Part shown: one piece after another, positions 573 through 62,609 of the stretch | Layout: each line of letters begins with the position of its first letter | Numbering within the stretch: position 1 is the stretch's first letter | Assembly (NCBI GenBank): GCA_965222225.1 | Contig: CBDCTK010000002.1 | Location: 3,936,001-4,000,000 of the forward strand | Direction of reading: 5' to 3' | Source of the DNA: Candidatus Poribacteria bacterium | GTDB taxonomy: Bacteria > Poribacteria > WGA-4E > JAJDTR01 | DNA length: 64,000 bases | The notes under the pieces: model-generated | What the model was told of the DNA's origin: nothing | The model's database searches: none | Seen by the model: the letters and a program-made list of their open reading frames with translations, nothing else | Made by a program: the position numbers and the translations under genes

Positions 573-750
573 GATCAACTGAGCGATCAAGCGACTGGAT
601 AAGGATCAAACGAGTGGATAGCGAGTGATCAACTGACTGGATAAGGAAGGCGATAGTGAATCCTGATAGCTAATCCCGCGCGATAGAGTTCCTATAGCGA
701 TGCGATAGCTAATCCCATAGTGAGTGCGATAGAAATCCCATAGAGATCTC
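573..750 (+). repeat. Nested cluster of GATCAA...GCGATAG...TCC hairpin mini-elements
   Basis: Openers GATCAA at 573, 585, 604 and 627, followed by six closers. Confidence 0.9.
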
Positions 751-812
751 TCATCAAATCGCCGATTCACTCCTTCTAGCCACTCTTCACTAGCCACTGG
801 CCACTGCTTTTA

Positions 813-3452
813 TCAGAATTGATTCGCCACAAACACCAAATCAAACACATTAATGACCCCATCCCCATTCACGTCCCCCTTCAAACTATCCGTCCCGAAC
901 CTCTGTGCCACCAGCGTCAAATCCAAAATATTCACCACCCCATCCCCGTACACATCCGCTGGGTTCTTCGGCTTCACCCGCAAATACATCTCCCCGTCAA
1001 GATTTGGTAACGCGTGCTGCGTGTTCACCCATCCGCTGGCGACACCCTGCACCTCCTCCGGCAACGTGTGACCTGTGGCGCCCCGCTGTGATTGTACACC
1101 GCCCAACCATTCGTGAATTCGCGAATGTAAAGCCCTTCTGTCTCTTGGTACAACTGACGTTTCGGACCGACGGGACGCCCAAGATCCGCGCCCCAGAAAT
1201 CGTACCAGTAATGGTGATGACCTCCGCCAGTTTGGAATAATACGTAACCGTCGGAGTGTGTGAGACTCAGCGTGGTAAACGTTCGCATCCAGCGGAGGTT
1301 CGTTGGACTATCAGGTGGTTCTGTAGGGACGCTCCAGCCCTCAAGACTGTTAATGTGCGGTTCTCTCAAGTTAGTTTCTAACCAGAACAGAGAACTTTCT
1401 ATTTCAGCGAGCAGCGCATCCAAATGATTTGCAGGCGCCTCACTCGGCACTAATGTTTCCATAAAGCTGCCGTTGAGATACTTACCGGTCTTGGGGATTT
1501 TGCGACGATTGGTGTTTCCAATGATGAGGAAGTTAGGCCTCGTTTCAGCGCGGATGCGTTCCAGTATGTTTATTTTCGCTTCGATTTCAGTTTCGTATCC
1601 AACATATTCGGTGCGCGGATTGCGGGTAACTAAAAGAGGTGAATTGTCGTTCCACCAGTCAATCATGATGCCATCGAACAAACCACATTTGGAGACGGCT
1701 ACGGCTTGGGCGACCATTCGATCCTGAAAGCCGGGGAGTGTAAAATTAATAAATGCGTCGCCTTCCCCAGCGCCAACCAGGTTGCCGGAGGCGTCGCGCA
1801 GCCAATACGGCCAGTCGGGGGGAAATTCATGAGGCGGTTCGGCGCGAAATGCAAGCTGTACAAGAAAGACCATATTGGGGTTGTGGGCGAGAAATGCGTC
1901 GCGATTTTCTATAGCCTAGCTAGGACCGTAGGGGGTAACCATTTGGATAGTGTCCGACGTTTCGCGGAAGTATGTCTCAAACCGCGGAACGCTAAACCAC
2001 AAATCGTGAGTTGCGAGGTTTTCAATATCTGATAATTCAGGTCGGTTCAAGGTGCGAATCCAACCTGGGCCGCCCCATGCAGCGAACAGTGATGGGAACG
2101 TTCTATTCTCCAATCGAGGTTGCAGTGGCACGGGCGGCAGGTCACAGGTCTGGTCGTAAAAGTAATGGGTAAGCGGGAGGTCGTCCAGCGGGCTGTGGTC
2201 TACAATTTGGTTCTGGTGGATTGCCAAGTGTTCGAGTCTTGTTAGTCCGGCGAGAGGTCGGACGTCGGAAATACGATTGCCGTGCACTTCCAGGTATTCT
2301 AACTGAGTCAACGCGGCGAGAGCGTTGATATCATGAATGTCATTGTATTCGAGATTGAGCCTTTGAAGTTTCGATAGGCGTGCTAGGGGGCGATGTTGAT
2401 AATCTCGCAGTCGGCTGCTTTAAGTGTGCTTAAATTTGTTAGATGCCCTATCGGTGTGATGTCGGAAAATGAATTGATGGATATGTTGAGCCATGTGAGA
2501 TTGATGGCGAATTCTAAACCGGTGAGATCTGTTATCTGACTATTTGCTGCAGCCAACCGTGTTAATTGCCGCATAAATGCGCGATTGACAAGGACGCCAT
2601 GGGGAGCTTGAGAGTTTCTCGGATAGCGGCTCTCAGGTTGGGGTCGGGGATATCGACGACCGGACTGTTCGCGTCGAATATGAGGTTGTTTTGAGTGTCA
2701 AGATATTCTAAATTTGTGAGATTTTCAAGTGGAGTAACATCCGTAATATCGTTATTGCCCAGCAGTAGTTTCGTTAACGCCGTAAGGTTGACGAGCGGGC
2801 TAACATCAACAATGCGGTTGTCCTTAACTTCTAACCATTCCAATTCAGTCAAATTCGCCAGTGGACTGACATCGGTAATCTGGTTTGAGTGCAATCGCAA
2901 CTTCTTTAGTTGACTAAAATTCGCCAGTGGTTTGATGTCTGTAATTGCGTTTCGTTGGAGATAAAGCCCGGTCAGTGCTGTTAGGTTTGCCAATGGACTG
3001 ATGTCGGAAATACGGCAATCCTGCGCAGCCAAGCCTCTCAATTTTGTAAGATTCGCCAGCGGACTAATGTCGGAGATTGGAGTCACTTGGATAAATAGTT
3101 CCTCCAGTGTCGTGAGTCCTGCTATCGGCGTAAGTTCAGTTATCGGGTTGCTCGGTATGTGAAGCCAAGTAAGGCTTACGGCGAATTCCAAACCGGTGAG
3201 GTCTGTTATCCCTCGGTTGGCGGCGTCTAAGCGTTGCAATCGCCTCATAAATGCAGTCGTAACGGGTGCGTCAGGACGGAGATTCAGCGCTTCTCGCACC
3301 GCGGCGCGCAGATTCGGGTCGGGCATGTGGACCGGATCTTCTATCGCATTCGCTATCTGCTCGCTTGATGGCTGGGCGTAAGTATCGGCGCAGAGTGCCG
3401 TCAATGCCAGTGCGATTATCGCGAATATAGTATAGGTCTTTCGTTTCTGCAT
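813..3452 (-). pseudogene. Secreted internalin-like LRR + putative glycoside-hydrolase-like domain + C-terminal dockerin protein, disrupted
   Basis: Signal peptide MQKRKTY..., PDPNLRAAV caps, LRRs, CGLFDGIMIDWW domain, DVNGDGVxNxxDL dockerin pair. Frameshifts near 2603, 2388 and 1070; in-frame TAG at 1916-1918. Confidence 0.8.
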
Positions 3453-3618
3453 AGGATAAGTCTCCTTATTCGGATGTTCCGACCACAGCAGCCACAAACA
3501 TCTCTGTTTCAAATAACGTCCACAATTCTGCCGCGGTAGATATCTTGAGATGAACGAAGGCGTCTTCGTCCGCTTTGCACCGCCTCAAATCCGTGAAATC
3601 CTTTAATCCGTTTAATCC

Positions 3619-3655
3619 GATCAACTGAGCGATTAGCGAAGGCGATAGAAATCCT
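3619..3655 (+). repeat. Single hairpin mini-element
   Basis: GATCAA CT GA GC GATTA GC GA AG GCGATAG AAATCCT. Confidence 0.9.
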
Positions 3656-3670
3656 ATCACGCATCACGCA

Positions 3671-5575
3671 TTAAAACGCATTCGCCACAAACACCAAATC
3701 AAACACATTGACAACCCCATCCCCATTCACGTCTCCCTTCAAACTATCCGTTCCAAACCCCTGAGCCACCAGCGTCAAGTCCAAGATATTCACCACCCCG
3801 CCCCCGTTCACATCCGCCGGATTCTTCGGCTTTACCCGCAAATACATCTCCCCGTCAAGGTTCGGTAGTGCGTGCTCCGTGTTTACCAAACCGCTGGCGA
3901 CGCCCTGTACCTCCTCCGACAACGTGATGACCTGCGCCTACCCACTGTGATTGTAGACTGCCCAACCGTTGGTAAATTCGCGGATGTAAAGTCCTGGGAT
4001 CTCTATCGCACTCGCTATTCGCTCCCTAGATCGGTTCTCGTAGAGTTGACCTTTTTCTTCGCTGACCGGACGACCGAGGTCGGCATCCCAGAAATCGTAC
4101 CAGTAATGCTCGTGCTGAATGCCGTCGTTAAACAAGACGTAACCGTCGGAATGCGTGAGGCCGAATGCAGTGAAAGCGCGCATCCAGCGTAAATTCGCCG
4201 GGCTATCCGGCGGTCCCGTGGGAATACCCCATCCTTCCAAGCCGTTAATCTGCGGTTCTCTGAGGTTGGCTTCCAACCAGAGCAAAGCGCTCTCTATCTG
4301 GGCTAACCCCGCTTCTAGACGCTCTCCGGTTTTATCGTGCGGCACCCCCGTTTCCATAAACCCGCCGTTGATATGCTCGCCTGTCCTCGGTATTTTGCGG
4401 TCGTTGGTGTTGCCCATTATCAATGGGCCCGGACGAGCCTCGGCGCGGATGCGCTCAAGAATGTTGCTCCGAGCGCGTTGCTCGACAATCGTGGCGTCCT
4501 CATCTTCCGCCCAATGGTCAAAAAGAACGCCGTCGTACAAACCGCACCTTGACACGGCGAGCGCTCGGTTAATGATTATCTCCTAGGCGACGGGGTGTGT
4601 AAAATCGACTTTGTAAGCACCAGGCAGGGAAGATTGCGATCAGGCTTGCCGTCAGCGCCTTTTACCCAATAAGGCGAGTCCTCCGGCACGTTTTCGAGAT
4701 AATCTCTTTTCATTGGAATACTTACAATGAAAACCATATCCGGATTAATCGCTGTATACTCAGCACGCAGTTGCTCACCCCGTCCGGGAACGCCCCGTAC
4801 TTCCCACGTTTCGCCCGTGCAAAAAAAAACGCTGGTCAAATATTAGTGCCGATATATACAAATCGTGTTGAGCGTATTTCTCCACATTACTAAGATGCGG
4901 TTGATTGAGAGTCCCGGCCCATGCGGCAAACACTGAGGGATAATTTCTGCTTTTCAACCTGGATTCGAGTTCAAATGGAGGCGTATCACAGACCTGATCG
5001 TAGGTAAAACGGGTAAGCGACAGACCGTCAAGCGGAGAGCGATCCATAATAAAATTTCCCTCAATGGCGAGTTTCCGTAATCCGGTCAAACCGCGTAACG
5101 CTTCTACATCGGCTATTTGGTTGTCGCGAAGCAATAACAAGCGCAGAGAAGTTAATCCGACAAGCGGAGAAACATCTTTGATTGCGTTTCTGTCCAACCC
5201 CAACTCTTCCAAACTGTGAAGGTTGGCGAGCGGGGATATATCGGAAATGCTGTTTCTTGCCAAATCCAAGAGCCGTATATTGGGAGCATATTGCAACCCT
5301 TCAAGATTCTCAATCTCTCTACCGGGAGCGTCCAACCGCTCAAGTCGCCGCAAGGCAACGACCGTGATACGGTCGGGATTCGCTCCGCTCGCCTCGACGA
5401 CGACAGCCTTTAGATTTGGATCGGGAAAATGAACGACTTGGGCATGAACCCAAGAGGCAACCAGTAGAAAGGCAGTGACCAGTAGCCAGCGGCTAGTGGT
5501 CAGTAAAGACAAAGACGAGTTTCTGTTTTTCACTGACCACTGCTTTTTGGTGGTGGCTAAAACGCGATGTAACAT
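3671..5575 (-). pseudogene. Second LRR + GH-like + dockerin paralog, disrupted
   Basis: Same architecture as 813-3452. Frameshifts at the A9 run 4821-4829 and near 4628; in-frame TAG at 4583-4585 and 3938-3940. Confidence 0.8.
3996..4032 (-). repeat. Hairpin mini-element inserted in frame in a CDS
   Basis: GATCTA GG GA GC GAATA GC GA GT GCGATAG AGATCCC; encodes RSRERIASAIEIP, absent from the paralog. Confidence 0.9.
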
Positions 5576-5813
5576 CGTAAATCTTCTTTCAGGAAAGGGT
5601 CATAATTGGCTTGGTGCGGCGATAACCGTACCGCACTCCGGGGCAGGTCTGGCCGAAAATCTTCGGAAGATGTTGACAAACCGTGATTCTGTAGGCGTAG
5701 ACAGAAAAGTCTAGCATGACGCGACGGGAAGTCAAGGTATTTTGTGTGCCGGATAGGAAAACCTTTACCCGACAACCCAAAACAATGCCCTTAAAACGCA
5801 AATTCGTGGGTTT

Positions 5814-6011
5814 TCAGAACTGATTCGCCACAAACACCAAATCAAACACATTCACCACCCCGTCCCCGTTGACATCCGCCGGATTCTTCGGTTTCACCCT
5901 CAGATACATCTCCCCGTCCAGATTCGGCAGCGCATGCTCCGTGTTCACCAAACCGCTGGCGACGCCTTGCTCCTCCTCCGGCAACGTTATTACCTGCGCC
6001 TCACCGCTGTA
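5814..6011 (-). pseudogene. 3' remnant of a third LRR-dockerin paralog
   Basis: SGEAQVITLPEEEQGVASGLVNTEHALPNLDGEMYLRVKPKNPADVNGDGVVNVFDLVFVANQF; the two dockerin repeats are collapsed into one. Confidence 0.8.
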
Positions 6012-6024
6012 GCCATTCGCTCGG

Positions 6025-7140
6025 CTAACATTCCTGCAAGTACCGAGTCAACAAACACTCTCCAGCGGTGATTGACAATTCAATCGCGAGAACCAGAATG
6101 GGCAGGTAGTCACGAGTGGCGGCGTTGTCGCCTTCCTCCGTGCAAAAAGCTGCTAATTTGAGTTCATCCTTGCGGGTCGTTATGATAAAGTCAGCCCCTG
6201 CCTGTTGTGCCTCAGTCTGAATTCTGACGACATCCGCACGAGAATACTGATGGTGATCGGGAAACGGCAGCAAGTCGATGTACTGTGGCTCATACCGGCG
6301 CAGCGTTTCCGCAAGCGTGTCCGGATTGCCAATCCCGCACACGGCAAATAGATTCTTCCCCTTCAAAATACTGAAATCAACGTCCTCGTCTTTACCTAGC
6401 CGGTAGAGTCGCGTCGGATTGTGGCGGCTCTCTACAATCGGCGTATCCCCCGCCAACGAGGCGATATCCTCGCGTATCTCATCCGCGGATTCCGCCATGT
6501 CAACCCGCGTAAGCATAATCAAATCTGCCCGTCGCAACGCCGATATCGGTTCGCGTAACGTCCCCGCGGGGAGCAACCTTTTCGTTCCAAACGGCTGCGT
6601 CGCATCCACGGCAACGATATCCAGATCTCGCGGCAATTTTCGGTGTTGAAAACCGTCATCCAAAATGAGTACGTCACACTTCAAGCGCTGCAAGGCGTGG
6701 CAGCCGGTCTCATAGCGATCTTTCCCGATAAGCACCGGAACGCTTGGCAGTTCCCGCGCGATCATCACGGCTTCATCGCCGCTCGTCTCAACGGACGCCA
6801 TAATCTCGCGGCCATCGGACACGACATGTGTTGCCGGTGTTTTTTCCTCACGATGATAGCCGCGCAGCAGGATGGCTGGACGGTAGCCCGCCTCTTGCAA
6901 CGCCTTGGCAATCCAAATGACTACCGGCGTTTTGCCCGTTCCGCCGGATACAATGTTGCCGACGCCAATCACGGTGCGAGGCAACCGCCTCGATTTGAGG
7001 AGGCGGCAATCGTAGAGCCAATTGCGGAAGTTGACAATCGCCGCGTAGACATAACTCAACGGTGTTAGCAAGGTTAGCAGTAGAGTGGGAACAAAACCCG
7101 TTGCTTTCCGCGTGATAACGAAGTAAAGGTAGTTTTTCAT
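6025..7140 (-). CDS. lpxK: Tetraacyldisaccharide 4'-kinase
   Basis: VGNIVSGGTGKTP, LRGY, LDDGFQH, LPAGTLRE and FPDHH motifs. Confidence 0.95.
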   Translation of the reverse strand: MKNYLYFVITRKATGFVPTLLLTLLTPLSYVYAAIVNFRNWLYDCRLLKSRRLPRTVIGVGNIVSGGTGKTPVVIWIAKALQEAGYRPAILLRGYHREEKTPATHVVSDGREIMASVETSGDEAVMIARELPSVPVLIGKDRYETGCHALQRLKCDVLILDDGFQHRKLPRDLDIVAVDATQPFGTKRLLPAGTLREPISALRRADLIMLTRVDMAESADEIREDIASLAGDTPIVESRHNPTRLYRLGKDEDVDFSILKGKNLFAVCGIGNPDTLAETLRRYEPQYIDLLPFPDHHQYSRADVVRIQTEAQQAGADFIITTRKDELKLAAFCTEEGDNAATRDYLPILVLAIELSITAGECLLTRYLQEC

Positions 7141-8255
7141 GATTCGACGTAGCCCAATACCAACTGAGCCGTTCGTTCCGCCGCCCCGGAATCTCCAAGC
7201 TGCTCACGTACCCTGCAAAGAGCTTTGCGTTGTTCCTCTCGTTTTTCCGAATCTTGTAGTAGATCGAGTGCGATTGAGGTTATCCGCTCAACCTCTACAT
7301 CATCTTGCAAAAGTTCGGGAACGATTTGGCGCCCGGCGACAATATTCGGCAACGCGCTCGAATCGAGTTTAACGAATCGCTTTGCCGTCCACCAACTGAG
7401 CCGGGACAATTTGTAGAGAACGACCATCGGCGTCAGGAGGCATGCGGCTTCAAGCGTGGCTGTGCCCGACGCTACCAGTATTAGGTCGGACGCGCGCATG
7501 GCTTCGTACGTTGCATCTTTGACAATTTTGACCGTTGGCGCTTCGGGCAAGGTTTCTGGGGGGATGCTTGGTGCCAGTGGTAAAATCAACTGGCAATCGG
7601 GTAGGATTCGACGAATCTGTTCGGCGGCTTCCAACATCACGGGGTACAAGGCTTCCACCTCTCGCCGCCGACTGCCCGGCATCAAACCGAGAACAGGCGC
7701 ATTTGGTGCCAAGCCAAGTTTCTCACGGGCTTCGGCTATAGCGAGGTCCGAATTGGCGTAGTCCAATAATGGATGACCGACGAATTGTGCGTGCGCACCC
7801 GCACGCTGGTAGAAGTCCGTCTCAAAAGGAAAGATTGAGGCAACCGCGCTAGTTCTTTTCGCGATTTTCTTCGCGCGATACCCACGCCACGCCCACGCTT
7901 TCGGCGGGATGTAGTAGACGACCGGTATTTGCAGTCGATGCGCGCACGCAGCAAGCCCCATGTTAAATTCTGCGAAATCGACGAGCACGACCACGTCGGG
8001 GCGTTTCTTGCGAATGAGCCGTTTTAAGTGCCGCTGTTTTTTTAGGAACGCCGGAATCGCCGAAAGCACCTCTCCGATGCCCATCACCGCCGAATCGCGA
8101 ATGTGATAAACGAGTGAAACCCCTGCGGCTTCCATATGGTCGCCGCCCATTCCGAAGAGCTCGATCTCGGGACGGAGGGTTTTGAGTTGAGCTGCAACCT
8201 GAGATGCCTGCAAGTCGCCGGACGGCTCGCCGGCAACGATCAGAATCGCTGGCAT
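7137..8255 (-). CDS. lpxB: Lipid-A-disaccharide synthase
   Basis: IVAGEPSGD, WAWR, FVGHPL, LMPGSRRRE and ASGTATLE motifs. Confidence 0.95.
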   Translation of the reverse strand: MPAILIVAGEPSGDLQASQVAAQLKTLRPEIELFGMGGDHMEAAGVSLVYHIRDSAVMGIGEVLSAIPAFLKKQRHLKRLIRKKRPDVVVLVDFAEFNMGLAACAHRLQIPVVYYIPPKAWAWRGYRAKKIAKRTSAVASIFPFETDFYQRAGAHAQFVGHPLLDYANSDLAIAEAREKLGLAPNAPVLGLMPGSRRREVEALYPVMLEAAEQIRRILPDCQLILPLAPSIPPETLPEAPTVKIVKDATYEAMRASDLILVASGTATLEAACLLTPMVVLYKLSRLSWWTAKRFVKLDSSALPNIVAGRQIVPELLQDDVEVERITSIALDLLQDSEKREEQRKALCRVREQLGDSGAAERTAQLVLGYVES

Positions 8256-8280
8256 TGTTTCACACTCACATTTCGTTAGG

Positions 8281-8440
8281 GATCAACCGAGCGGATAGCG
8301 AGGGCGATAGAGATCCCTCAAGCGACTGGATAACGATCAACTGAGTGGTTAACGAAGGATCAAAGGAGCGGATAGCGACTGCGATAGCCAATCCCATAGA
8401 AGATCCCGTGCGATACAGTTCCCTTCAACCGAGTGAATAA
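8281..8440 (+). repeat. Nested hairpin mini-element cluster
   Basis: Complete copies at 8281-8317 and 8358-8395; interrupted copies at 8318 and 8335. Confidence 0.9.
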
Positions 8441-8470
8441 ATCAAGGGAATTCTTCAATGTGTATATCCG

Positions 8471-9514
8471 CTACGGCATCATACCCGGAATGCGTAACCC
8501 TGCGGTTTCGTCTAAGTCAAACATCACATTCAGGTTCTGCACAACCGCACTTGACGCGCCCTTGCCGAGGTTGTCAATCGCAGACAACACGACGACTCGA
8601 TTTGTGCGCACGTCGACTTCAAGTCCGATGTCACAGTAGTTGGTTCCGGCAACCGCTTTTGTCTGCGGGTACTCGTCCTGATCGAGAACACGCACAAATG
8701 GCTCTTTTTCATAGTATTTCGAATAAATCGCCAATAACGACTCAGTTGAAATATCGGCTTTGAGTTGGAAGTAGAGTGTGCTCAGAATTCCCCGCGTCAT
8801 CGGAACGATGTGGGGCGTAAAGATCACGCGGATAGTCTCGCCAGCGATCTTGCTCAACTCCTGCTCAATCTCCGGGGTGTGGCGATGCGTGCCGATGTTG
8901 TATGCGATAAAATTTGATTCTCGATTGGGAAAATGTGTTGTTGCGCTAGGGGTGCGTCCCGCGCCGGAGATTCCGGACTTCGAGTCGATTATGATGGAAC
9001 TCGGTTCAACCAAATCTCTGGCAAGCAGCGGCAGCGTGGGGAGAATGGCGCTTGTCGGATAGCACCCGGGATTTGCCACTAGCTCTGCCGTGCGAATCTC
9101 GCTTCGATAAAGTTCCGGCAAACCGTAAACTGCGCGCTCCATCCACTCGGGGTCCGAGTGCTCGACATGATACCATCCCTGATACGTTTCAGGATCGTCC
9201 AAACGGTAATCTGCACTGAAATCAACAACGCGAAGACCCTGTTTCAAAATCTCCGGTACGTACGACATGGCAACTTTGTGGGGGACGGCAAGAACAACCA
9301 CGTCCACCCGATCTCTGAGCGTCTCAATCTCCAACGGCTCGAAATCAAGGTCGATCAAACCGCGAAGGTTCGGCATTACCCGGTCTACCCGCTGGCCAGG
9401 ATACGTTTCCGACGTCACCATCTCGATTTTCAATTCGCCCGGGTGACTGATCAGGAAACGCAACAATTCGCTGCTCGTATAACCTGACGCCCCCACAATG
9501 CCAACCTTTACCAT
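8471..9514 (-). CDS. argC: N-acetyl-gamma-glutamyl-phosphate reductase
   Basis: GIVGASGY, VANPGCYPT, DSKSGISGAG and DNLGKGA motifs. Confidence 0.96.
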   Translation of the reverse strand: MVKVGIVGASGYTSSELLRFLISHPGELKIEMVTSETYPGQRVDRVMPNLRGLIDLDFEPLEIETLRDRVDVVVLAVPHKVAMSYVPEILKQGLRVVDFSADYRLDDPETYQGWYHVEHSDPEWMERAVYGLPELYRSEIRTAELVANPGCYPTSAILPTLPLLARDLVEPSSIIIDSKSGISGAGRTPSATTHFPNRESNFIAYNIGTHRHTPEIEQELSKIAGETIRVIFTPHIVPMTRGILSTLYFQLKADISTESLLAIYSKYYEKEPFVRVLDQDEYPQTKAVAGTNYCDIGLEVDVRTNRVVVLSAIDNLGKGASSAVVQNLNVMFDLDETAGLRIPGMMP

Positions 9515-9677
9515 TGAGATTCGCGCTCCTCGTCATGCTGCGCCTAATTTTAGAATATCAGTGAGACTAAACCCTCCGTGACCGATGAAAAATTGTAGCA
9601 TTCAGAACGACGGATGTCAAGAACCAACGTCAAGCGCCAACGATTCGATTCCGCTTCAAATCCCCTGATTGTGCTCA

Positions 9678-9845
9678 ATAGAGATCCCATAGAACTCCCT
9701 TCAACCAAGACGTAGGAGGGATCAAGCGAATGGATAATGAGTGCGATAGTAAATCCCACACGACAGAGATCCCCTCAAGCGGGTGAATAACGAGTAGGAT
9801 GAACTATCGCCTTCACTATTCGTTCAGTTGATCGATAGAAATCTT
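9678..9845. repeat. Hairpin mini-element cluster, both orientations
   Basis: Forward copy 9720-9757; reverse copy 9796-9833 inside a forward copy. Confidence 0.85.
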
Positions 9846-9914
9846 CTTGCCCCGACTCCGTTGCACCTCTTGGCGCCAGGGCTTTACCAACCGCTAACTT
9901 CTACCACCAAACAC

Positions 9915-10256
9915 TTACGCAAAATGTATCCAATGCCCATCAGGATCTTGAAAACTCAGACTCGGACCGCGCCGCGTGAGGGGAATATTCCTTTGGCGAA
10001 GCGTTTCAAGCGCCTCTTCTTCCGCTCCATCAGGCAGATTGAGCGCAAGATGATGCACACCCGCGCCAATTTGCGCCGGATCGGATGCTTGGAACAATGC
10101 CAACACTTCTCCGTTTGCCAAACGCAAGAAGATGCGATTCTCTGAAGCACTTCCCTCTTCCAGTCCCAAATGAGCGATATACCAATCGGCAGACTTTCGT
10201 ACATCGCTCACCCAGACAGCGACGTGATTGAACCCTTGCACCTTTATACTTGCCAT
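9915..10256 (-). CDS. VOC/glyoxalase family protein
   Basis: GFNHVAVWVSD...HHLAL...FQDPDGHWI. Confidence 0.9.
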   Translation of the reverse strand: MASIKVQGFNHVAVWVSDVRKSADWYIAHLGLEEGSASENRIFLRLANGEVLALFQASDPAQIGAGVHHLALNLPDGAEEEALETLRQRNIPLTRRGPSLSFQDPDGHWIHFA

Positions 10257-10440
10257 TGTCTATTGCCTCCTTTCTTCCAGACAAATCGGATTTTATCATA
10301 TTTTGAGCCACGCCGCTAGATGTACTTGGGATACAGACAGGGGAAATGCATCTAAAATCTATCGAATCGTCCTCACGCTGTAAATAACCACGATGGTTGT
10401 TTTTAACTTCCTATGTTTTCCGCCCTACAGCCCCAGAGGG

Positions 10441-10477
10441 GATCGAGCGAGCGAATAGCAAGTGCGATAGAGATCCC
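10441..10477 (+). repeat. Hairpin mini-element inside a GCCCCAGAGGGGCGACAGG REP-like palindrome
   Basis: Uninterrupted site seen at about 29237-29255. Confidence 0.9.
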
Positions 10478-10681
10478 GACAGGGCTGGTTGTGTCTCGGA
10501 TGTATCGTCCGAATTAAAGACGAATTTTCGATTATAGGCGGATTTGGGCGAATCGAAATTTAACCGAGAATGCTACAACCGCCACCGAGCTAGCCACTTT
10601 CCGATTTTTTCTAGTTGCTACCTAAGTGTCGCCCCTCTGGGGCTTTAGCGTGCTTACGATTGGCGTTGCTATACACCTTCC

Positions 10682-10707
10682 GGGATTTCTATCGCACTCG
10701 TTTGATC
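10682..10707 (-). repeat. Internally deleted mini-element inside a REP-like palindrome
   Basis: Reverse complement is GATCAAACGAGTGCGATAGAAATCCC. Confidence 0.75.
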
Positions 10708-11076
10708 CCGCGCTGGGGCTTCCGATGTGTGACGAATCGGTGTTGCTATCACTTTGAGAATCTCATCTTCAATTTGATGATGGTCTATCTCCTAGATTCA
10801 GATGCGTTTTCCCTTGGGATACAGACAGGGCAATCACACCTGATTCAGGAGATTTCTTCGTCCGCGATGAACACGGTTGCCAAATCTCCACAATTCTTTG
10901 AATGGTGCGACGGCATAAAGTTTCCCATATAACCAAAACCGGCTGTCAATAACCCTCGCCACGTCACGCACACGAAAAGGGTTGAATCGATTACGGCCGT
11001 GTGTTATGCTCTTAGAGGTACGAGTTGCCTTTACCTACGGCTCAACTGCTTAATGGCGAGAGATTGGTGGAATTGT

Positions 11077-11775
11077 ATGGCACACAAGCTATCGGTTGTT
11101 ATTCCAATATACAATGAAATCGCGACCTTGGAGGAGATTCTTACGCAAGTCAAAGCCGTTGACATCGGTATGGAGAAAGAGATCCTTCTCGTGGATGATT
11201 GTTCAACGGACGGCACCCGCGAAATACTCAAAAAGATTGAGCAATCGGACGATGAGCAGGTGCGCGTGTTCTACCACGCCGTTAATCGAGGCAAGGGCGC
11301 TACGCTGAGGACCGGCTTTCAACACGTTACCGGAGATATTACCATCATCCAAGATGCGGATTTGGAGTATGATCCGCAGGACTACCCCAAATTGATTCAG
11401 CCGATTTTGGATGAAGAAGCCGATGCCGTATACGGTTCCCGTTTCATGGCGTCTGCGCAACACTCTCTGCTCCGCAGTTTTATCGCCAATAAAGTCTTGA
11501 CCTACCTCTCCAATCTGTTTACCCAACTCAATCTTACCGATATGGAGACCTGCTACAAAGTCATCAAAACCTCTATTTTGAAGGAAATCCCGTTGCGCTC
11601 GGACCGATTCGGATTTGAACCGGAAATCACGGCAAAACTCGCTCGGCGGAAATGCCGCGTCGTCGAACTGCCGATTGCCTATCATGGACGCGATTACCAA
11701 GAGGGTAAATCCGTCAGTTGGAAAGATGGGCTTGCCGCTATCTTTCATATTATTCGCTTTCGATTCAAGGATTGA
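11077..11775 (+). CDS. Glycosyltransferase family 2 (DPM1-like)
   Basis: LSVVIPIYNE, VDDCSTDGT, NRGKG, QDADLEYDP and TDMETCYK motifs. Confidence 0.92.
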   Translation: MAHKLSVVIPIYNEIATLEEILTQVKAVDIGMEKEILLVDDCSTDGTREILKKIEQSDDEQVRVFYHAVNRGKGATLRTGFQHVTGDITIIQDADLEYDPQDYPKLIQPILDEEADAVYGSRFMASAQHSLLRSFIANKVLTYLSNLFTQLNLTDMETCYKVIKTSILKEIPLRSDRFGFEPEITAKLARRKCRVVELPIAYHGRDYQEGKSVSWKDGLAAIFHIIRFRFKD

Positions 11776-11857
11776 TTCCAAGGACAAAGTCGTGAGGTAA
11801 TAACCCGGCAAGTTTAGAGAATAAACTTCACATCTTGAGGGCAACATGGAACGGAAT

Positions 11858-11899
11858 CTTCCACCTTCCGCTCTTCCACCCTTCCAATTCTATCCTTCC
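11858..11899 (+). repeat. CTTCC(A)-rich short tandem repeat; related tracts at 14040-14088 (reverse) and 40864-40913
   Basis: Repeated CTTCCA(N) units. Confidence 0.6.
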
Positions 11900-12000
11900 T
11901 CAACCGGTTTTTCTCGCGTTTGCCCCTGTTCTTGTATCGTTTTCCCAAAATCTCGGCTCAAACCTAACGACTGCCTTCAAGACTTGACGCTCCCCGCCCC

Positions 12001-13839: not shown

Positions 13840-14147
13840 ACTGGCACCAAATCTATTGGGACTTTTACAAATCTTTACATATTTTGGCGTTTTCACGATC
13901 CACGTGTCCCGTTTTCACCCTATTTACACGCCCAATCCGGGGCGAGGTTGAGGCGGCGCCCTCACACCCCAAAACTCCATTCGATTCCGCGGTCAGGGGA
14001 AACGCATCTGATTTTTGGTTGTTGATGGTGAGTGAAGAGTTGGAATGGAGTAATGAGCGGAAGGATGGAAGATGGGAAGGATGGGATGGTGATTTTGAAT
14101 AGAATTCGTACCGCAAACTGTTAGTTTGCGGAAAGCACAATCTAACA

Positions 14148-14265
14148 GATCAAGCGAATGGCTAATGAGTGCGATAGTAAATCCTGATAGCAAGTCTTGA
14201 TAGCGATCCCATAGAAATCTTCTCCCGATCGCGACCTCCTGTCACGAGCAAACTCGTTCCTACAG
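14148..14265 (+). repeat. Mini-element cluster fused to half of a GTAG-type REP
   Basis: Complete copy 14148-14185 plus three orphan closers, then CCCGATCGCGACC...CCTACAG. Confidence 0.85.
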
Positions 14266-14525
14266 TAGGTTTGTCGTAACTGTCATCAAATCGCCCACCC
14301 CCATCCTTTTCATTTCGCGTCCAACTAGTCGTTCACTTGCGCGTAGACCGCAATATGTGTAAATGTGAATGCAAATGACTATAGATGCGTTCCTCCCGAT
14401 TCCCCTACCCTCAACGGTTGACACCATTGAAGAGCTGTGTTATTTTAGGAGACATGATTCGCAAACAATCCGAGCCATAGAAATCCGCGTCCGTAAGTGG
14501 CGACAATCCGGCGACGAATGAGAAC

Positions 14526-39009: not shown

Positions 39010-39026
39010 ACACGTGTTCCAAACAT

Positions 39027-49077: not shown

Positions 49078-49248
49078 GATCAAGCGAGTGGTTAACGAGT
49101 GCGATAGAGATCCCTCTCCGAATCACGACCTCCTATCGCGAGCAAAACTCCCTCCTACAGAAGACGCGTAATAAAGGGATTTCTATCGATCAACCGACTG
49201 GATAAGGAGGACGATAGTAAATCCTGATCGCTATTCGCTCCCTTGATC
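49078..49248. repeat. Mini-elements inside a REP (49078-49114) and inside a reverse copy (49188-49225 within 49176-49248)
   Basis: Paralogous to locus 29542-29700, giving empty/filled comparisons. Confidence 0.9.
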
Positions 49249-50515: not shown

Positions 50516-50551
50516 GATCAAGCGAGTGAATAGCGAGTGCGATAGTAGTCC
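50516..50551 (+). repeat. Hairpin mini-element
   Basis: Preceded by GAAAGCGCCAGCGGC, the same flank as the reverse copy at 62488-62524. Confidence 0.9.
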
Positions 50552-50892
50552 GTTCATCTTGCCCCGACCTCTTGAGGTGCAGAACAGTAGGTTGGGTTGA
50601 GCGGTCATTTCCGAACTCAAAAGAACTCCCCTCTTCAATGACCAACCTGCCTAAACAACAGAGCGAAACCCAACTCCGCCACCACAATCGAACGATATAG
50701 CTTTCAATGCGATGGAGCTCCCATAGATGTTCCCCGCCCGCCTTTGAAAGCTCCACCTCGCCGACAGTTGTATGCAATCACCCAAATACCCGCTTAGCCG
50801 CCACAACTTCATTTCTCCCTATCAAATCCCTCCTCGTCTGTGCAATAATATCTATTGGAAACGCTCAAATAAATCTGGGAGACGAAAACCAA

Positions 50893-53034
50893 ATGGACAA
50901 CAACACGAACACGGACGAGACGAAAAAACGCCAAGAAGACCTAGACACTGCGCAGAGGTGGCTCGGCGATGCCCGCGAATGGATCAAATTGGCGGAACAG
51001 TTGAATAGCGAAAGTGCAGAGCGCCAGAATAGCAACTCTCCCGAATTCCACAAGTTGAACGTCGCGCATGTCTGTACAGTCTTGGCATTTCAGTTGGCGT
51101 ACAACTCGCTGCTAGTTGCCGAAGCGAAATGGCCGAGGGAAAAGGATGGCGTAGAGAAAACACACAGGAGGCTGCAAAAGGAGACGCAAAGCACAATAGA
51201 GGGATGGATTAGGGAGACAGGAAACGACAACAGCAATTTATTGAAAAATCTTGACAATTACATGAACGAATACGGGATGGAAAGTGCGTTGGAAGACGGA
51301 AACCACCAATTTAACACTTCGGCGTTGGCAACGGTACTTGATGAGTTACTGACGCTAGGTGAACAAAAACTAACTGACGCTAGAAACGTCATCCATCAGA
51401 ATCAACCCGCTCCCAATCTTGATACCGTCCTTGAGAAAATCGGAGAGATAGCAAGAGCCTCGGAAGGTAGCGACTATATCTATCGCGGTGAACCTGAATA
51501 TTATGACAAAGTATCGTCAAACCTATACCGACACTACGAAGGTGATATTGAGGCAGAACATTTCCGGATAGAAATTGCCCAAGATAACATGTTGGAAGAT
51601 GCCAAACGTTATGCCGAGAAAGGCACTAACTTCGAAATCCTAACTCAACTCCAGCACTTCGGCGGAAAAACCAATCTCATAGATTTTTCTACTGATTACC
51701 TAGTTGCCCTCTTCTTCGCTTGTGATGGCTCTTTTGATGAAGACGGTAGAATTCTCCTATTGAAAGAAACTGAGGTAATCAAGAAACAATATGGCGTCAC
51801 AACACCCCGGATTCCACAAAACCGTGTCTTAGCTCAAAAAAGCAAATTCGTTCAACCTCCCGAGGGCATCATTGATCCAAGCAACGAAATTGATATTCCT
51901 AGCAGCCTCAAAAAGCCGATATTAGACTACCTGAGAAAGCACCACGACATTTCCACTGAAACCATCTATAACGACCTTCATGGATTCATTATAAATCAGA
52001 ATCGCCATCAAAGCGCTTACACGGAGTTCTTCAAAGGTAAGACATGTCACGATAATGAAAACTATCCCAAAGCCATTGCGCATTACACTGAGGCCTTGCA
52101 GCGAAACCCGCAATTGTTTGAAGTTTGTAACAATCGCGGAGTCGCTTACGGTGAGATAGGAATGCATGACTACTCTATCAAAGACTTTGGCAAGGCGATA
52201 GAACTCGAATCAAATAATCCCACGGCATACATCAATCGTGGGCTGGCTTATTACCACAAGGGAGAATATAGTCATGCGATTCAAGATTATAATAAAGCGT
52301 TAGAACTGAAACCCGATTGGGCCGACGCTCAATACAATCGCGGGTTGGCTCACTACCACAACGGCGAATATGAACCTGCTATCAGGGACTTTAGCATTGT
52401 AATAGATAGCGATGCCAACGATTCCAAAGCGTATGACAGTCGCGGAACTGCTTACAGGAAGTTAGGCAAGCATGACTACGCCATCAAAGACTATAGTAAA
52501 GCGATTGAACTCCAATCTGATTATGCCAAGGCTCGTTACAATCGTGGGTTGAGTCATAACGATCAGGCCAGATATGACCGTGCCATTCAAGATTTTAACA
52601 AAGCGATAGAACTGAAACCCGATTGGGCCGACGCCCATAACAATCGCGGGTTAGCATTCTACCACAAGCGGGAATACGACCTCGCTGCCAAAGACTTTAA
52701 CAGTGCAATAAACATCAAACTTAGCCATGCCGCAGCGTACAACAATCGTGGAATCACACACGAGAAAATGGGCAAGCGGGACTGCGCCTTCGAAGACTAT
52801 GACAAGACTATAGAATTAAAACCCGATTGGGCCCCCGCTTATTACAATCGTGGATTGATGTGTTTACACATGGAAGACTGGGAGAAAGCCGAGTCTGACT
52901 TGACTACAGCAAAGAACAAGGGCATGGATATTGTGGCGGCATTTCGTGAACGCTATGCAAGTATTTCCTACTTAGAAAAAGAAATCGGCGTGAAGTTACC
53001 GGAAGACATCGCCGCAATGCTGCAACCTAGCTGA
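50893..53034 (+). CDS. N-terminal helical (HEPN-like?) domain + FRG domain + TPR repeats
   Basis: YIYRGE, LQHFGGKTNLIDFS, NRVLAQKSKF, then about 8 TPRs. Confidence 0.85.
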   Translation: MDNNTNTDETKKRQEDLDTAQRWLGDAREWIKLAEQLNSESAERQNSNSPEFHKLNVAHVCTVLAFQLAYNSLLVAEAKWPREKDGVEKTHRRLQKETQSTIEGWIRETGNDNSNLLKNLDNYMNEYGMESALEDGNHQFNTSALATVLDELLTLGEQKLTDARNVIHQNQPAPNLDTVLEKIGEIARASEGSDYIYRGEPEYYDKVSSNLYRHYEGDIEAEHFRIEIAQDNMLEDAKRYAEKGTNFEILTQLQHFGGKTNLIDFSTDYLVALFFACDGSFDEDGRILLLKETEVIKKQYGVTTPRIPQNRVLAQKSKFVQPPEGIIDPSNEIDIPSSLKKPILDYLRKHHDISTETIYNDLHGFIINQNRHQSAYTEFFKGKTCHDNENYPKAIAHYTEALQRNPQLFEVCNNRGVAYGEIGMHDYSIKDFGKAIELESNNPTAYINRGLAYYHKGEYSHAIQDYNKALELKPDWADAQYNRGLAHYHNGEYEPAIRDFSIVIDSDANDSKAYDSRGTAYRKLGKHDYAIKDYSKAIELQSDYAKARYNRGLSHNDQARYDRAIQDFNKAIELKPDWADAHNNRGLAFYHKREYDLAAKDFNSAINIKLSHAAAYNNRGITHEKMGKRDCAFEDYDKTIELKPDWAPAYYNRGLMCLHMEDWEKAESDLTTAKNKGMDIVAAFRERYASISYLEKEIGVKLPEDIAAMLQPS

Positions 53035-55972: not shown

Positions 55973-57742
55973 ATCAAACTCCACCACAAAATCTTCCTCA
56001 CCTACACGTCGCTCTTCCTCGTCACCATCGGCGGGATATTCGCGATTGCGAGTTATTTTATACGCGCCGCGTTTGACGGGCAGATTCGCGAGGAAGCGGC
56101 AGAATTCAGAACTCGTATCTCGGAGACGCACAATTCCTTGGTTGCGGACATTGAGGAGAAGGTCGAGACTGAAAGAACCGACCCCGATGTCGTGCGCGCC
56201 ATCAGAAACCAAGAAACACGGCCGACGACGATTAGAGACACCGTGCTGGAAATTCTGGAGTACGGGGACGCCGACGGGCAAATCATCGCCAGTCGATTGG
56301 ATCTGGATCTTCGCCGGGGAGAGGTTGATTCGGAAGCGCGGGATCGCGCAGTAAACAGAGCCCCCAAATCCGCGATTCGGCTGAGAAACACGCGGCGCGG
56401 CGAAATCGGTTCCTCCGAATCGGCAATCGAGGTCACGCTGCCAATCAAGGCGGGCGAGAGAATCTTGGGTTTTGTCACGGGCGGCTATTTCTTGCGAGAT
56501 CGACTTCGTCGTGCGCTGAGCAACCAATCACGACATACGGTTTTTCTTCGGGAAGCGGACGAACTAATCCCTCTGAATCGATCGGAAGGTTCCGTTCCGG
56601 TCGAGAAAAATGAGCTGATTCAGGCTGCCGGCACGGACAAAACCGGCAGGTTCTCAAAGATCAAAATTGATAACATGCCGCACAGCGTTATTCCGGTAGC
56701 GCTGCCGACGTTGCCGTCAAGCTCACCCGTCGAATTGATTATCGCGTATTCTCACCAAAACGAAATCAGGTTGCAGCGCCAGTTGACACTGATTCTTTTT
56801 GTCGTGGCGGCGGTCGGACTGCTGTTCGCCTATATTGCCAGCTACCTGATCGGACTCCGGATGACCAAACCCATTCACGAACTCACGTCAGGCGTAAGCC
56901 GGATCGCGTCCGGGGAGCTTAACCACCAACTGGATGTCCGCACCCGAGACGAAATCGGACAGCTTATGCAAGGCGTCAACCGGATGGCGACAGATCTGAA
57001 AACCAACTTGGAGCGACGAATTAGCGCTGAACGTGTCGCCGCGTGGCAGGATGTGGCGCGCCAAATTGCCCACGAAATCAAGAACCCGCTGTTTCCTATT
57101 CGAGTCTCAATCGAAAACCTTCAGAAAGCGCGCTCGCAGCCCGAAATCTTCGATAAGATATGCGACGAATGCACCGAGACCATCATTGAAGAGGTCGACC
57201 GACTCCAGCGGATGGTGGACGAATTCCATCAATTCGCTCGGCTGCCCCTTCCCGACCGAAAGCCTTCCAATCTCAATCAAATCGCCGAACACGCACTGAA
57301 TCTGTACTCCCAATCGTTATCGCAGATTCGGATTGAGGCCGACCTTCACCCCGACCTGCCTCGCATCTCCATCGACCCGGAACAGATTGCCCAAGTTTTG
57401 CAGAATCTGATCAAGAACGCCGTTGAAGCCATGCCGGACGGAGGAAGTTTGCGTATTTCAAACCTGCCAATTGATGGGAGCGGGGTTGCGGTAGAGGTTC
57501 AGGACACGGGTATGGGAATGTCGCCGGAAACACAGAAGGAAATGTTTACCCCGTACTACACAACAAAGGAAACCGGAACCGGCTTGGGCATGGCGATTGT
57601 GCAACGAATCATTTCCGATCACGGCGGCAAAATCTCCGTGACGAGTACGGAGGGGGCTGGCACAACAGTGCGTCTTGAGTTTCCGAATCCCGCCCGATCA
57701 ACCGAACGAATAGATCAAACGACCGAATTGGCAGTGCGATAG
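55973..57742 (+). CDS. HAMP-domain sensor histidine kinase (NtrY-like); start codon appears to be ATC
   Basis: TM1 upstream of the called ORF, HAMP, ARQIAHEIKNPL, NLIKNAVEA, DTGMG and GTGLGM motifs. Confidence 0.85.
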   Translation: MKLHHKIFLTYTSLFLVTIGGIFAIASYFIRAAFDGQIREEAAEFRTRISETHNSLVADIEEKVETERTDPDVVRAIRNQETRPTTIRDTVLEILEYGDADGQIIASRLDLDLRRGEVDSEARDRAVNRAPKSAIRLRNTRRGEIGSSESAIEVTLPIKAGERILGFVTGGYFLRDRLRRALSNQSRHTVFLREADELIPLNRSEGSVPVEKNELIQAAGTDKTGRFSKIKIDNMPHSVIPVALPTLPSSSPVELIIAYSHQNEIRLQRQLTLILFVVAAVGLLFAYIASYLIGLRMTKPIHELTSGVSRIASGELNHQLDVRTRDEIGQLMQGVNRMATDLKTNLERRISAERVAAWQDVARQIAHEIKNPLFPIRVSIENLQKARSQPEIFDKICDECTETIIEEVDRLQRMVDEFHQFARLPLPDRKPSNLNQIAEHALNLYSQSLSQIRIEADLHPDLPRISIDPEQIAQVLQNLIKNAVEAMPDGGSLRISNLPIDGSGVAVEVQDTGMGMSPETQKEMFTPYYTTKETGTGLGMAIVQRIISDHGGKISVTSTEGAGTTVRLEFPNPARSTERIDQTTELAVR

Positions 57743-57819
57743 AGTTCCCATAGAGATCCCTTCAAGCGAGTGGATAACGAGCAGTCAAAGGCGCGAATAG
57801 CGACTGCGATAGAAATCCT
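57696..57819 (+). repeat. Nested mini-element cluster overlapping the kinase 3' end
   Basis: Openers at 57696 and 57713; the stop TAG lies in GCGATAG. Confidence 0.85.
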
Positions 57820-58104
57820 AGTGAAACCCAACACCCAATCCAACTGAAGCGGGAAACAGTAGTAGGCGCGCTCCGTCGTGCCGTAACGTGCACAAGGGAC
57901 GGCATACAGAGTATGCCTACTACTGGCAACTTAGGTTAAATAGCTCTCTGCGCCCCTGAACTCCGATTGCAACAGCCCGCAACCAGCCCCCCATTTCTTC
58001 CTTGCATTTTCCATTGGCGTGTGCTAAACTCCGCAAGGTTTTCCAAGTACTAAACCGCACCAATTTTTATCGAATTTTGACATACAATATAAGGAGGATC
58101 ACAA

Positions 58105-58359: not shown

Positions 58360-58428
58360 CTTGCTAGTTATGCCATCTCTCTAAAATGACAGGCATCAAT
58401 GACGTGAATTAGAATCGCGATTCGGAGA

Positions 58429-58482
58429 GGGATTTCTATCGCGCTCCTTGTTCAGTCGCTTGATTTGTCCGCTCGCTTGATC
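58429..58482 (-). repeat. Nested mini-elements (reverse) next to half of a REP
   Basis: Reverse complement is AATCAA GC GA CT GAACA AG GA GC GCGATAG AAATCCC. Confidence 0.85.
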
Positions 58483-62277: not shown

Positions 62278-62487
62278 CGCATTGTCGAAACTCGATTTTG
62301 TACATTTAAGCAGCACAACAGGCGATGGTAATCAAGCGTTAAAGAAAAGTAGGGAGTCTTTGATTTTCTCGGCTTTTTGCCAGTCCATTGAAAAAAGTCG
62401 CATCCGTAGACCAGAACCGGAGTCTCATCCAACCCCGTGCATCATCGGAATAAATCGCCAACGGTTTCTGATACCGTGCAGCCTGCC

Positions 62488-62609
62488 GGGATTTCTATCG
62501 CACTCACTACTCGCTCGCTTGATCGCCGCTGGCGCTTTCAAAGGCTGGTAAGAACTCTATCACATTCGCTATGGGACTTCTATCGCACTCACTATCCGTT
62601 CGTTCGATC
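62488..62609 (-). repeat. Hairpin mini-elements (62488-62524 and 62573-62609)
   Basis: Both match the consensus with compensatory pairs. Confidence 0.9.

Follow-up and report, generated by a model that had tools for sequence, protein, structure and literature searches.

The element and its copies in the window

The window analysed here is a stretch of 64,000 bases (positions 3,936,001-4,000,000 of contig CBDCTK010000002.1, assembly GCA_965222225.1) from a Candidatus Poribacteria bacterium with a genome of 5.70 Mb, and it carries dispersed copies of a short hairpin element, a non-coding unit of about 37-38 bases that encodes nothing and whose behaviour as a discrete insertion is well supported. 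A family of this kind had been proposed from the letters of the window (hereafter the original prediction), and a search with its 30-base core (GATCAA-NN-GA-NN-G-NN-TA-NN-GA-NN-GCGATAG, at most two mismatches) returned 24 matches in the window, none in 100 dinucleotide-preserving shuffles and 1001 genome-wide. With a looser 23-base core, comprising the hairpin part only (module A), 1233 modules were counted genome-wide at one mismatch at most, and the window held 39 modules in 25 clusters; the modules at 4373r (r, minus strand) and 57890 look like chance matches, leaving about 23 loci against the predicted "about 21". The complete unit consists of GATCAA, the hairpin, GCGATAG, 2-4 variable bases and ATCC(C/T), and we call tail the stretch formed by GCGATAG, 2-4 bases and (A/T)TCC(C/T). 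GCGATAG followed 559 of 768 modules in exact frame, another GATCAA directly followed 69, and these 768 copies comprised 297 haplotypes, the commonest with 50 copies. The GATC that opens the unit often recurs 31 bases on. On the main contig 1066 of 1230 modules (87%) are intergenic with respect to our crude open reading frame (ORF) calls, which cover 81% of its DNA.

Where units are piled up, the arrays combine 5' fragments with a single complete unit and a run of 3' remainders. The array at 573-757 (plus strand, end approximate) has a 12-base 5' fragment, modules of 19 and 23 bases, the complete unit 627-664 and a 3' remainder chain (GATAG/ATAG...ATCC), and just upstream of it (500-530, plus strand) lies a GTAG-tagged repetitive extragenic palindromic sequence (REP) of another family (GTAGGAGCGAG...CTCGCGA type), which is a host or neighbour and not a member. 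Also on the plus strand, the array at 8281-8423 contains a complete unit, a 19-base fragment, two 23-base modules and three GCGATAG/ATAG...TCC tails, then a degenerate module; two modules with tails lie at 16452-16560 (end approximate), two more, behind an inverted tail (CTATC) and a REP, at 29626-29740, and one module with a degenerate second unit at 47954-48040. Simpler plus-strand loci are the single units at 3619-3656 (CT/AG, GC/GC) and, with one tail, at 40523-40575. Two convergent arrangements were found: the unit at 9720-9757 (plus strand, behind a GTAGGAGG head) faces that at 9796-9833 (minus strand, behind an inverted tail, CTATC), and the doublet at 49188-49248 joins the unit 49188-49225 (plus) to the module 49226-49248 (minus).

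Many of the remaining loci sit in or behind the arms of other hairpin repeats. The GATCGA variant at 10441-10478 (plus) comes after half a hairpin repeat of the GCCCC type, namely its 5' side CCCCAGAGGG; the unit with about four tails at 14148-14230 (plus, end approximate) follows CACAATCTAACA, the 5' arm and loop of another such repeat, and is followed by a REP 3' part; and three modules with tails stand behind a GTAGGAGC head at 18835-18955 (minus, low coordinate approximate). At 33761-33850 (plus) a unit behind a GTAGGAGG head is followed by tails and by CTCCGAATCGCGAC, a REP 3' part, at 39232-39345 (plus) two modules and tails follow GTAGGGTGCGCACTGC, a REP 5' arm and loop, the unit at 49078-49115 (plus) is enclosed by GTAGGA and CTCTCCGAATCACGAC and hence lies inside a REP, and the single unit at 50516-50553 (plus) comes after GCGCCAGCGGC, the 5' half of a hairpin repeat.

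The arrays are not an assembly artefact of a single data set, because public runs of 8 studies contain the window stretch and contigs from three DNA runs enter the arrays at 99% identity; the absence from independent data that would have spoken for a library artefact was thus not observed.

Fold, covariation and folding strand

The outer dinucleotide pairs listed in the original prediction were recovered at their positions: CT/AG at 627, 3619, 9833r and 39255, CC/GG at 8281 and 29626 (the latter module being followed by another module, not by GCGATAG), AG/CT at 8358, GG/CC at 18901r, 25975 and 33761, AC/GT at 57713 and 62609r, GC/GC at 40523, GC/GT at 9720 and 49078, and the exception GG/GT at 4032r. 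Over the 1233 modules of the genome, Watson-Crick, G-T wobble and unpaired combinations numbered 834/260/139 at pair 7-23, 1041/44/148 at pair 8-22, 1110/40/83 at pair 11-19 and 1006/173/54 at pair 12-18. Watson-Crick or G-T combinations therefore occupy the four variable pairs in 89-96% of modules, against 10-63% in mis-registered controls, where Watson-Crick pairs alone reach 9-38%. An independent sample, composed of the 24 window copies and 80 from other Poribacteria genomes (102 distinct copies, 408 pair cells), was paired in 97.1% of cells versus 63.1% in shuffles (0/500 reached the observed value) and 21-59% in slid registers, with changes on both sides in 141 cells and at all four pairs; these copies are paralogues, not orthologues, and the pairing statistics carry no phylogenetic correction. 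With that reservation, the expectations that mismatches are few and that selection acts on the fold rather than on the sequence held.

G-T combinations far exceed A-C at pair 7-23 (257 vs. 41) and at pair 12-18 (172 vs. 24), and the constraint therefore applies to the GATCAA strand, the folding strand. Under RNA parameters this strand folds as.(((..((..((.....))..))..))) in 4/4 copies tested (-4.3 to -8.5 kcal/mol; 0.79-0.89 of the ensemble), and the complementary strand folds worse or not at all. The single hairpin of each unit is formed by ATC/GAT, an AA/GC internal loop, two variable pairs, a fixed tandem G.A/A.G, two further variable pairs and a G-N-N-T-A loop, i.e., a stem of 3 + 2 + 2 pairs interrupted by two 2x2 mismatch loops. 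In DNA, sheared G.A pairs in tandem have an unusual stability when the context is pyrimidine-GA-purine, which is also the context most often seen among the modules. The loop fits G-N-R-N-A in most copies (AA in 398 and GA in 272 of 768). Covariation in this element marks both the bases that must pair and those that must stay unpaired.

The pairs are also restricted in orientation. In every covarying pair just two or three of the four possible Watson-Crick orientations are in use, a constraint beyond pairing: there is almost no T-A at 7-23 or 11-19 and nearly no A-T at 8-22, the loop-closing pair 12-18 is pyrimidine-purine with almost no exception, and T is almost never found at positions 7 and 11.

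Nested copies

Directly upstream of 153 complete units lies a 5' fragment of another module, 10, 12, 17, 18, 19 or 21 bases long, and the dominant module spacings in arrays are 23, 19, 12, 17, 18 and 10 bases. In 96 nested cases, with a fragment of 10, 12, 17, 18 or 19 bases and a second GCGATAG downstream, the outer dinucleotide of the upstream fragment fully complemented the two bases before that second GCGATAG 66 times, against 22 in the inner-unit control, and over all classes pairing was found in 78/136 (permuted mean 47.4, sd 4.3, maximum 62 in 2000). The result is carried by the 10-, 12-, 17- and 18-base classes (45/68 vs. 8/68 in the control), the 19-base class contributing little, as GCGATAG is often preceded by GT in any case (inner control 14/28). 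When 12-base fragments with a strict remainder were considered, all four cross-junction pairs fitted in 12/19 cases (inner control 0/19; permuted mean 7.4, maximum 13 of 5000), and in 17/19 the remainder began 8-9 bases after the inner GCGATAG, from which it follows that the unit measures 37-38 bases.

The 96 cases represent 80 different combinations of host and insert and therefore many separate events. A small number of nested composites were found 4-6 times each, at loci unrelated to one another. Slippage was rejected as the origin of the arrays, since neighbouring modules are no more alike than random pairs (6.07 vs. 5.56 differences over 10 variable positions; 3/309 neighbours identical), and arrays therefore grow by insertion. 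The left junction falls at many positions of the host hairpin (10, 12, 17, 18, 19, 21 and 23). Complete units of 37-38 bases inside older copies whose halves still pair, inside REP hairpins and in frame in genes bear out the "minimal mobile unit" that had been proposed, and the nested copies record dozens of separate insertion events together with defined unit ends, a preference for hairpin tips and a replication-linked polarity.

Hosts, genes and turnover of sites

Of the 924 arrays, 235 have GTAG at 0-5 bases and 46 at 12 bases upstream of their first GATCAA (2 for CTAC, as control), and 621 lack a GTAG head. Several GTAG REP families are represented among the heads, each by its 5' arm, and where GTAG lies 0-2 bases before GATCAA (61/924) it is part of the 5' half of such another family. 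The matching REP 3' half follows the array in 18/19 cases for family R5, 13/18 for R4, 23/39 for R1/2, 4/7 for R6 and 4/4 for R10, as compared to 8-23% for REP 3' halves after arrays at large; the commonest head, GTAGGGTGC (72 arrays), had no such excess (11/72). Exact and energy-based tests of flank pairing gave a small excess over permuted tails, the family-by-family 3'-half test being clearer. Upstream of one gene for a REP-associated tyrosine transposase (RAYT) the REP is intact in one relative (G003, L088) and split by an array in another (G006, L089), and overall the unit was found in at least five unrelated host hairpins. GTAG-headed arrays were slightly more intact than the others (0.77 vs. 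1.15 mismatches). The element is tightly entangled with GTAG-tagged REPs, with which it has heads, hosts and strand polarity in common.

Insertion also reached genes: 14/998 units lie at least 90 bases inside ORFs of at least 250 amino acids, all in stop-free frames. Two window copies, both on the minus strand, sit in frame, namely the CATCAA variant at 3333-3370 in ORF 2562-3512, read as QPSSEQIANAIEDP, and the unit at 3995-4032 in ORF 3938-4555, read as NRSRERIASAIEIP, which adds about 11-13 residues absent from the unit-free paralogue 1025-1873. The paralogous minus-strand genes 1025-1873 and 3938-4555 end in dockerin-like repeats (GDVNGDGVVNILDL) and are both broken after ...AVYNHSG, by an in-frame TAG in one and a frameshift in the other, with the frame continuing for some 70-90 residues; they may be a pseudogene pair or a case of recoding.

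Orthologous intergenic sites in related species (G001, G002 and G005) carry arrays of other composition, a REP, or nothing. At 83-89% identity turnover was too heavy for the junctions to be read, and only the 92-95% identical stretch common to G005 was informative. The unit with four tails at 25975-26075 (plus) is matched in G001 and G002 by a short degenerate remnant only; the array led by a 17-base fragment at 57696-57840 (plus) is replaced in G005 by a GTAG REP; the 17-base fragment and unit at 58428-58482 (minus) are conserved in G005 and expanded in G002; the unit following GCGCCAGCGGC at 62487-62524 (minus) has in its place in G005, between flanks 92-95% identical, 53 bases of hairpin repeat; and the unit directly behind GTAG, with tails, at 62545-62609 (minus, low coordinate approximate) is common to G005. 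Near position 62343 the window lacks some 390 bases found in G005, which include a REP doublet and an inverted unit and are bordered by the direct repeat AGAAAAG; the difference is either a larger composite insertion or a microhomology deletion. Public contigs of four runs, compared over window positions 1-20000, stop at arrays and gave no usable presence/absence or expression evidence; two contig joints that seemed to skip 37 bases were set aside, their sides being only 19-24 letters long and probably cross-matches between copies.

A further non-coding repeat of about 60-70 bases that starts like a gene (ATGAAAAAACTTTCAACAAATGACC...) has 54 copies, including one downstream of 39345, and is often found right behind an array, an inverted partner (AGAACCTGTTTGAAAAGTACA) lying upstream. 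It was considered as a transposase (MKKLSTNDQKW...) and dismissed, the frame being at most 69 amino acids long in 53/54 copies. Among the other features of the window, six minus-strand tRNA genes lie at 33906-39114, four of them within 280 bases (38841-39114), and an array starts 118 bases on. A 306-base tandem repeat (1.9 copies, 74% matches) at 52275-52858 belongs to the 775-amino-acid ORF 50707-53034, and the GCGATAG found there is a chance of coding.

Orientation and replication polarity

The orientation of the arrays is random with respect to flanking genes (392 co-oriented vs. 355 opposed). It is regionally coherent and tracks the GC skew that is left after removal of the transcription-linked part: where the plus strand is G-rich by the skew within 25 kb, 243 arrays are on the minus and 124 on the plus strand, and where it is C-rich, 125 and 302, respectively. 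In terms of this replication-type skew, 545 arrays are concordant and 249 discordant, so that the GATCAA strand lies mostly on the C-rich strand, conventionally the lagging strand. The 246 arrays with neither GTAG nor CTAC nearby are even more polar (179 vs. 67), and the same polarity was found in 7/9 hairpin-repeat families tested (GTAG R1-R6 and R2b, odds ratios of about 2-8.5), R7 and R8 being the two without it. Since orientation is blind to transcription but follows the replication skew, single-stranded DNA is favoured over RNA; of the two intermediates left open by the original prediction, the former is hence retained and the latter disfavoured.

Along the 5.6-Mb main contig the replication-type skew changes sign at least six times, and repeat polarity switches with it. 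Such sign changes suggest many inversions, or a weak or atypical skew.

Distribution and candidate enzymes

The element occurs in hundreds of copies in each of the 10 species of the genus, the genome of the window included, and in about 120-140 in all four species of a second genus (g4), which belongs to another family. It was not found in the rest of the 151 phylum genomes sampled, 100 of which come from the largest family, apart from strays in four (G133, where only 4 contigs carry them, G010, G072 and G088), which binning carry-over or transfer could account for and which were set aside. The tail of the second genus differs (TCTTCTCC or TTTT) and haplotypes are fewer, while the 30-base core and the position in or just after hairpins are alike; there, particular haplotypes go with particular host hairpins. 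A pattern scan of public records gave at least 125 stretches, and all among those listed are titled Candidatus Poribacteria. Rfam returned nothing at the gathering threshold in the window except six tRNAs, and no match at E up to 1 in bases 1-20000, and plasmid and phage collections contained no match to the element, in keeping with the original prediction, which recognised no described family in it. A literature search on Poribacteria with REP or MITE (miniature inverted-repeat transposable element) found nothing relevant, which does not show that the element is undescribed elsewhere.

As the original prediction had it, the window contains no obvious mobiliser: all Y1 matches of the genome, i.e., five to the Pfam Y1 family and two more with the NCBIfam RAYT model, several of them broken, lie elsewhere. 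Y1 genes are the only single-strand transposase type found in the genome, where IS110 was not detected and a reverse transcriptase is represented by one weak match (a 679-amino-acid ORF); the Y2 search was uninformative, its model having matched no control genome. Two Y1 loci are flanked by inward-facing units, one with an intact IS200-type gene (L001) and one with a 73-amino-acid RAYT remnant (L005). In the relatives, each RAYT clade has its own GTAG REP, arrays are often inside these REPs, and no clade is tied to the element; in G001, G005 and G009, for instance, RAYT clades are flanked by GTAGGGTGCGCA- and GTAGGAGCGACC-type REPs. The candidate enzymes of the genome itself include two RAYT-like genes, of 247 and 160 amino acids. 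A cognate RAYT for the element was not found among the RAYT loci of relatives inspected, and the best-scoring clade (about 200 bits) was discarded as mobiliser, being present in a genus without the element (g6) and absent from the genome.

L001 (G000:C2:3078872-3082216) encodes an intact IS200-type Y1 protein of 157 amino acids, 66-91% identical across five genera (L012-L019), and its family is flanked by an inverted hairpin repeat of its own (GCCCC-NNN-GGGGCGACATGT...), a RAYT-like arrangement for an IS200-type protein. L003 (G000:C2:3087437-3090769), the best match of the genome to the model for REP-associated transposases, is divided by an internal TAG into frames of 74 and 91 amino acids and flanked by inverted GTAGGAGCGATCTCCAGGTCGCGA REPs.

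For E. coli TnpA-REP, PMC3333891 reports that it binds only REPs with a stem mismatch, needs GTAG and works on single strands alone, that its cuts fall at C^T, some way off, and that it exchanges strands. These traits make a Y1 enzyme the most economical candidate, and Y1/RAYT enzymes are the only mobiliser candidates found; that such an enzyme moves the element is plausible by analogy.

Interpretation

We favour, with moderate confidence, the reading in which the 37-38-base non-coding unit is copied in trans to the tips of DNA hairpins, as single-stranded DNA at the replication fork and by a Y1 enzyme. Copies would be made in trans and placed at or near a hairpin tip, the targets being its own older copies, stems from several GTAG REP families and, less often, unique sequence, genes included. 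Arrays of the composition given above would then result from repeated insertion. If only copies that still fold were recognised and copied, the fold would be kept, which would explain why hundreds of copies covary although they are not linked. The most likely substrate would be DNA that is single-stranded at the replication fork, and the most likely enzyme one of the Y1 (HUH) REP-associated transposases of the genome; we regard both the route and the enzyme as plausible. A bolder version, which is possible but doubtful, would make the element the smallest insertion unit to date that is discrete and has defined ends, a self-targeting, hairpin-seeking module recognised by its tandem G.A on single-stranded DNA, inserted where hairpins (REPs or its own copies) are extruded, at their tips, and a third-tier parasite of REPs; its enzyme might be a domesticated Y1 transposase used in an undescribed way, or a class not yet linked to transposition.

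Several observations weigh against copying by a Y1 enzyme into hairpin tips. The nested junctions are not clean, two to four host bases being missing or ambiguous at most sites, and at nested, REP or gene insertions neither a target duplication nor a fixed target word was found, a few host bases being lost instead. No presence/absence polymorphism was seen within one population; public contigs break at arrays, and the nearest genomes are 83-95% identical. Head-to-tail pairing over all arrays had a small excess only (117 vs. 99 permuted at -8 kcal/mol), and DNA energy parameters predict no stable hairpin on either strand (-0.4 to -1.8 kcal/mol, z >= 0). As to the enzyme, no Y1 gene is consistently flanked by the element in the genome or in relatives, the 50 RAYT loci of relatives have no constant arrangement of flanking units, RAYT clades also occur in genera without the element, and the density of the element in intergenic DNA makes flanking by chance likely; L001 was rejected as mobiliser since, in genera that lack the element, its orthologues have another repeat, a GCCCC hairpin, on their flanks. 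Finally, if the G-rich strand is the leading one, the polarity is opposite to that of insertion into the lagging-strand template and fits only on the further assumption that exposed-strand copies disappear more quickly. Copies with the folding strand exposed at the lagging-strand template would be excised or deleted more often; the exposure of the folding strand has been invoked in the same way for the orientation of integron attC sites.

A first alternative holds that the element is not mobile by itself but a loop or linker module of REPs or BIMEs, a passenger in RAYT-moved REPs that recombination or strand exchange at REP hairpins shuffles among REP families and among copies. About a third of arrays have a REP head and many have both REP halves, the g4 haplotypes are tied to their host hairpins as if host and unit were copied together, the few recurrent composites and the polarity common to REPs point the same way, and, according to PMC3333891, BIME variants can arise by strand exchange at linker sites. 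However, most arrays lack a GTAG head, those with neither GTAG nor CTAC nearby are the more polar ones, units stand alone inside genes, and the 80 nested combinations and the variety of unrelated host hairpins are not what a passenger would leave, so that we consider this unlikely. The scattered left junctions, the few lost host bases, the constant presence of hairpins as hosts and the polarity that follows replication could also arise without a dedicated enzyme, if stalled replication switched to another copy, copied one unit and switched back (copy choice). This is improbable, as the inserted piece always has the same ends, GATCAA and ATCC, insertions occur in unique coding sequence with no hairpin host, and the conservation of the unpaired G.A and its flanks across two genera points to recognition by a protein.

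Two other explanations, in which the copies would serve a function where they lie, appear still less probable. Selection at each locus for a structured RNA, such as a G.A protein-binding motif, a stabiliser or a terminator, would account for the uniform, dominant fold under RNA parameters, for the tolerance of G-U and for the G-N-R-N-A loop, and contigs from RNA libraries run up to arrays (a weak point); we give it very little weight in view of the random orientation to flanking genes, of units nested, truncated and piled in arrays at positions that are not conserved between species, and of the lack of an Rfam match. Least probable of all, by a shade, is a polar chromosomal signal or duplex-DNA binding site of the KOPS, Chi or nucleoid-protein type, whose orientation would follow replication: it agrees with the strong polarity and with the GATC that opens the unit and often recurs 31 bases later, but to a protein that reads duplex DNA the complementary variation of unfixed bases would be meaningless, the fixed GA/GA is not a palindrome, and the family is missing from most genera of the order.

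Comparison with known systems

The definition of REPs given in PMC6006769 asks for GTAG 0-2 bases from the stem and a basal stem of 7-20 bases. The element is a short palindromic repeat with far more than the 100 mostly intergenic copies expected of a REP (1001-1233), while no GTAG or GTGG of its own lies 0-2 bases 5' of the hairpin and no basal stem of 7-20 bases is fully paired. It resembles REPs, BIMEs and REPINs in its short imperfect hairpins, its hundreds of intergenic copies, its mosaic arrays and its compensatory stem changes, the last of which are reported for REPINs by Bertels and Rainey (PMC3116915). It differs from REPs, besides GTAG and stem, in that its arrays are head-to-tail and not alternating and in that its units are nested. 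MITE features are lacking as well, since GATCAA at one end is no inverted version of ATCC(C/T) at the other and there is no target-site duplication, and the one hairpin per unit is not the pair of subterminal hairpins on one strand of a palindrome-associated element of the IS200/IS605 type. The element works like a REP or a small dispersed repeat (SDR), yet lacks two canonical REP features and those of MITEs.

The Nostoc SDRs described by Elhai et al. in 2008 (Genome Res 18:1484) are reportedly repeats of 21-27 bases with a predicted hairpin, inserted in other repeats and argued to be mobile with no known enzyme. The likeness lies in the nesting of our element in its own kind and in REP hairpins, and the element differs in being found in Poribacteria and not in Nostocaceae, in its greater length (37-38 bases), in its fixed tandem G.A and in its link with GTAG REPs. 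According to PMC5861425, SDR5 may use HIP1 as insertion site. REP hairpins are the preferred landing sites of insertion sequences such as IS1397, ISPpu9 and others (PMC1525189, PMC8450116 and PMC12288879). Unlike our element, which has 37 bases and encodes nothing, IS1397 and ISPpu9 are 1-2 kb long and have their own transposase.

The BOX elements of pneumococci are modular, with a head, a repeated middle of variable module number and a tail, and the Rickettsia palindromic elements (RPEs) are tolerated in frame in genes; both measure 100-200 bases and are not known to show nested self-insertion. The units found deep in gene frames recall RPEs, whereas the sequence design is unrelated to that of BOX elements and RPEs. 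Integron attC sites act as folded single strands in which structure and unpaired bases, rather than sequence, are conserved and orientation relative to replication limits folding; they bound gene cassettes and are 57-141 bases long with R and L core boxes. The likeness to attC is one of principle only, as gene cassettes, R/L boxes and a length of 57-141 bases are not seen in our element.

Small repeats of the REP and SDR type pose an old, unsettled question as to how they are copied, since new insertions are seldom seen with clear ends. The arrays described here break short-read assemblies, occur in frame within proteins and reshape intergenic DNA from one sponge-symbiont species to the next, which matters for annotation, and they offer, for a host that cannot be grown, a concrete single-strand substrate of 30-38 bases with G.A pairs and a short list of Y1 enzymes. 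With about 1,000 copies, repeatedly placed in the tips of other DNA hairpins, its own copies included, the element is one of the smallest discrete insertion units seen in bacteria, and its record of nested insertion is unusually clear among very small dispersed hairpin repeats.

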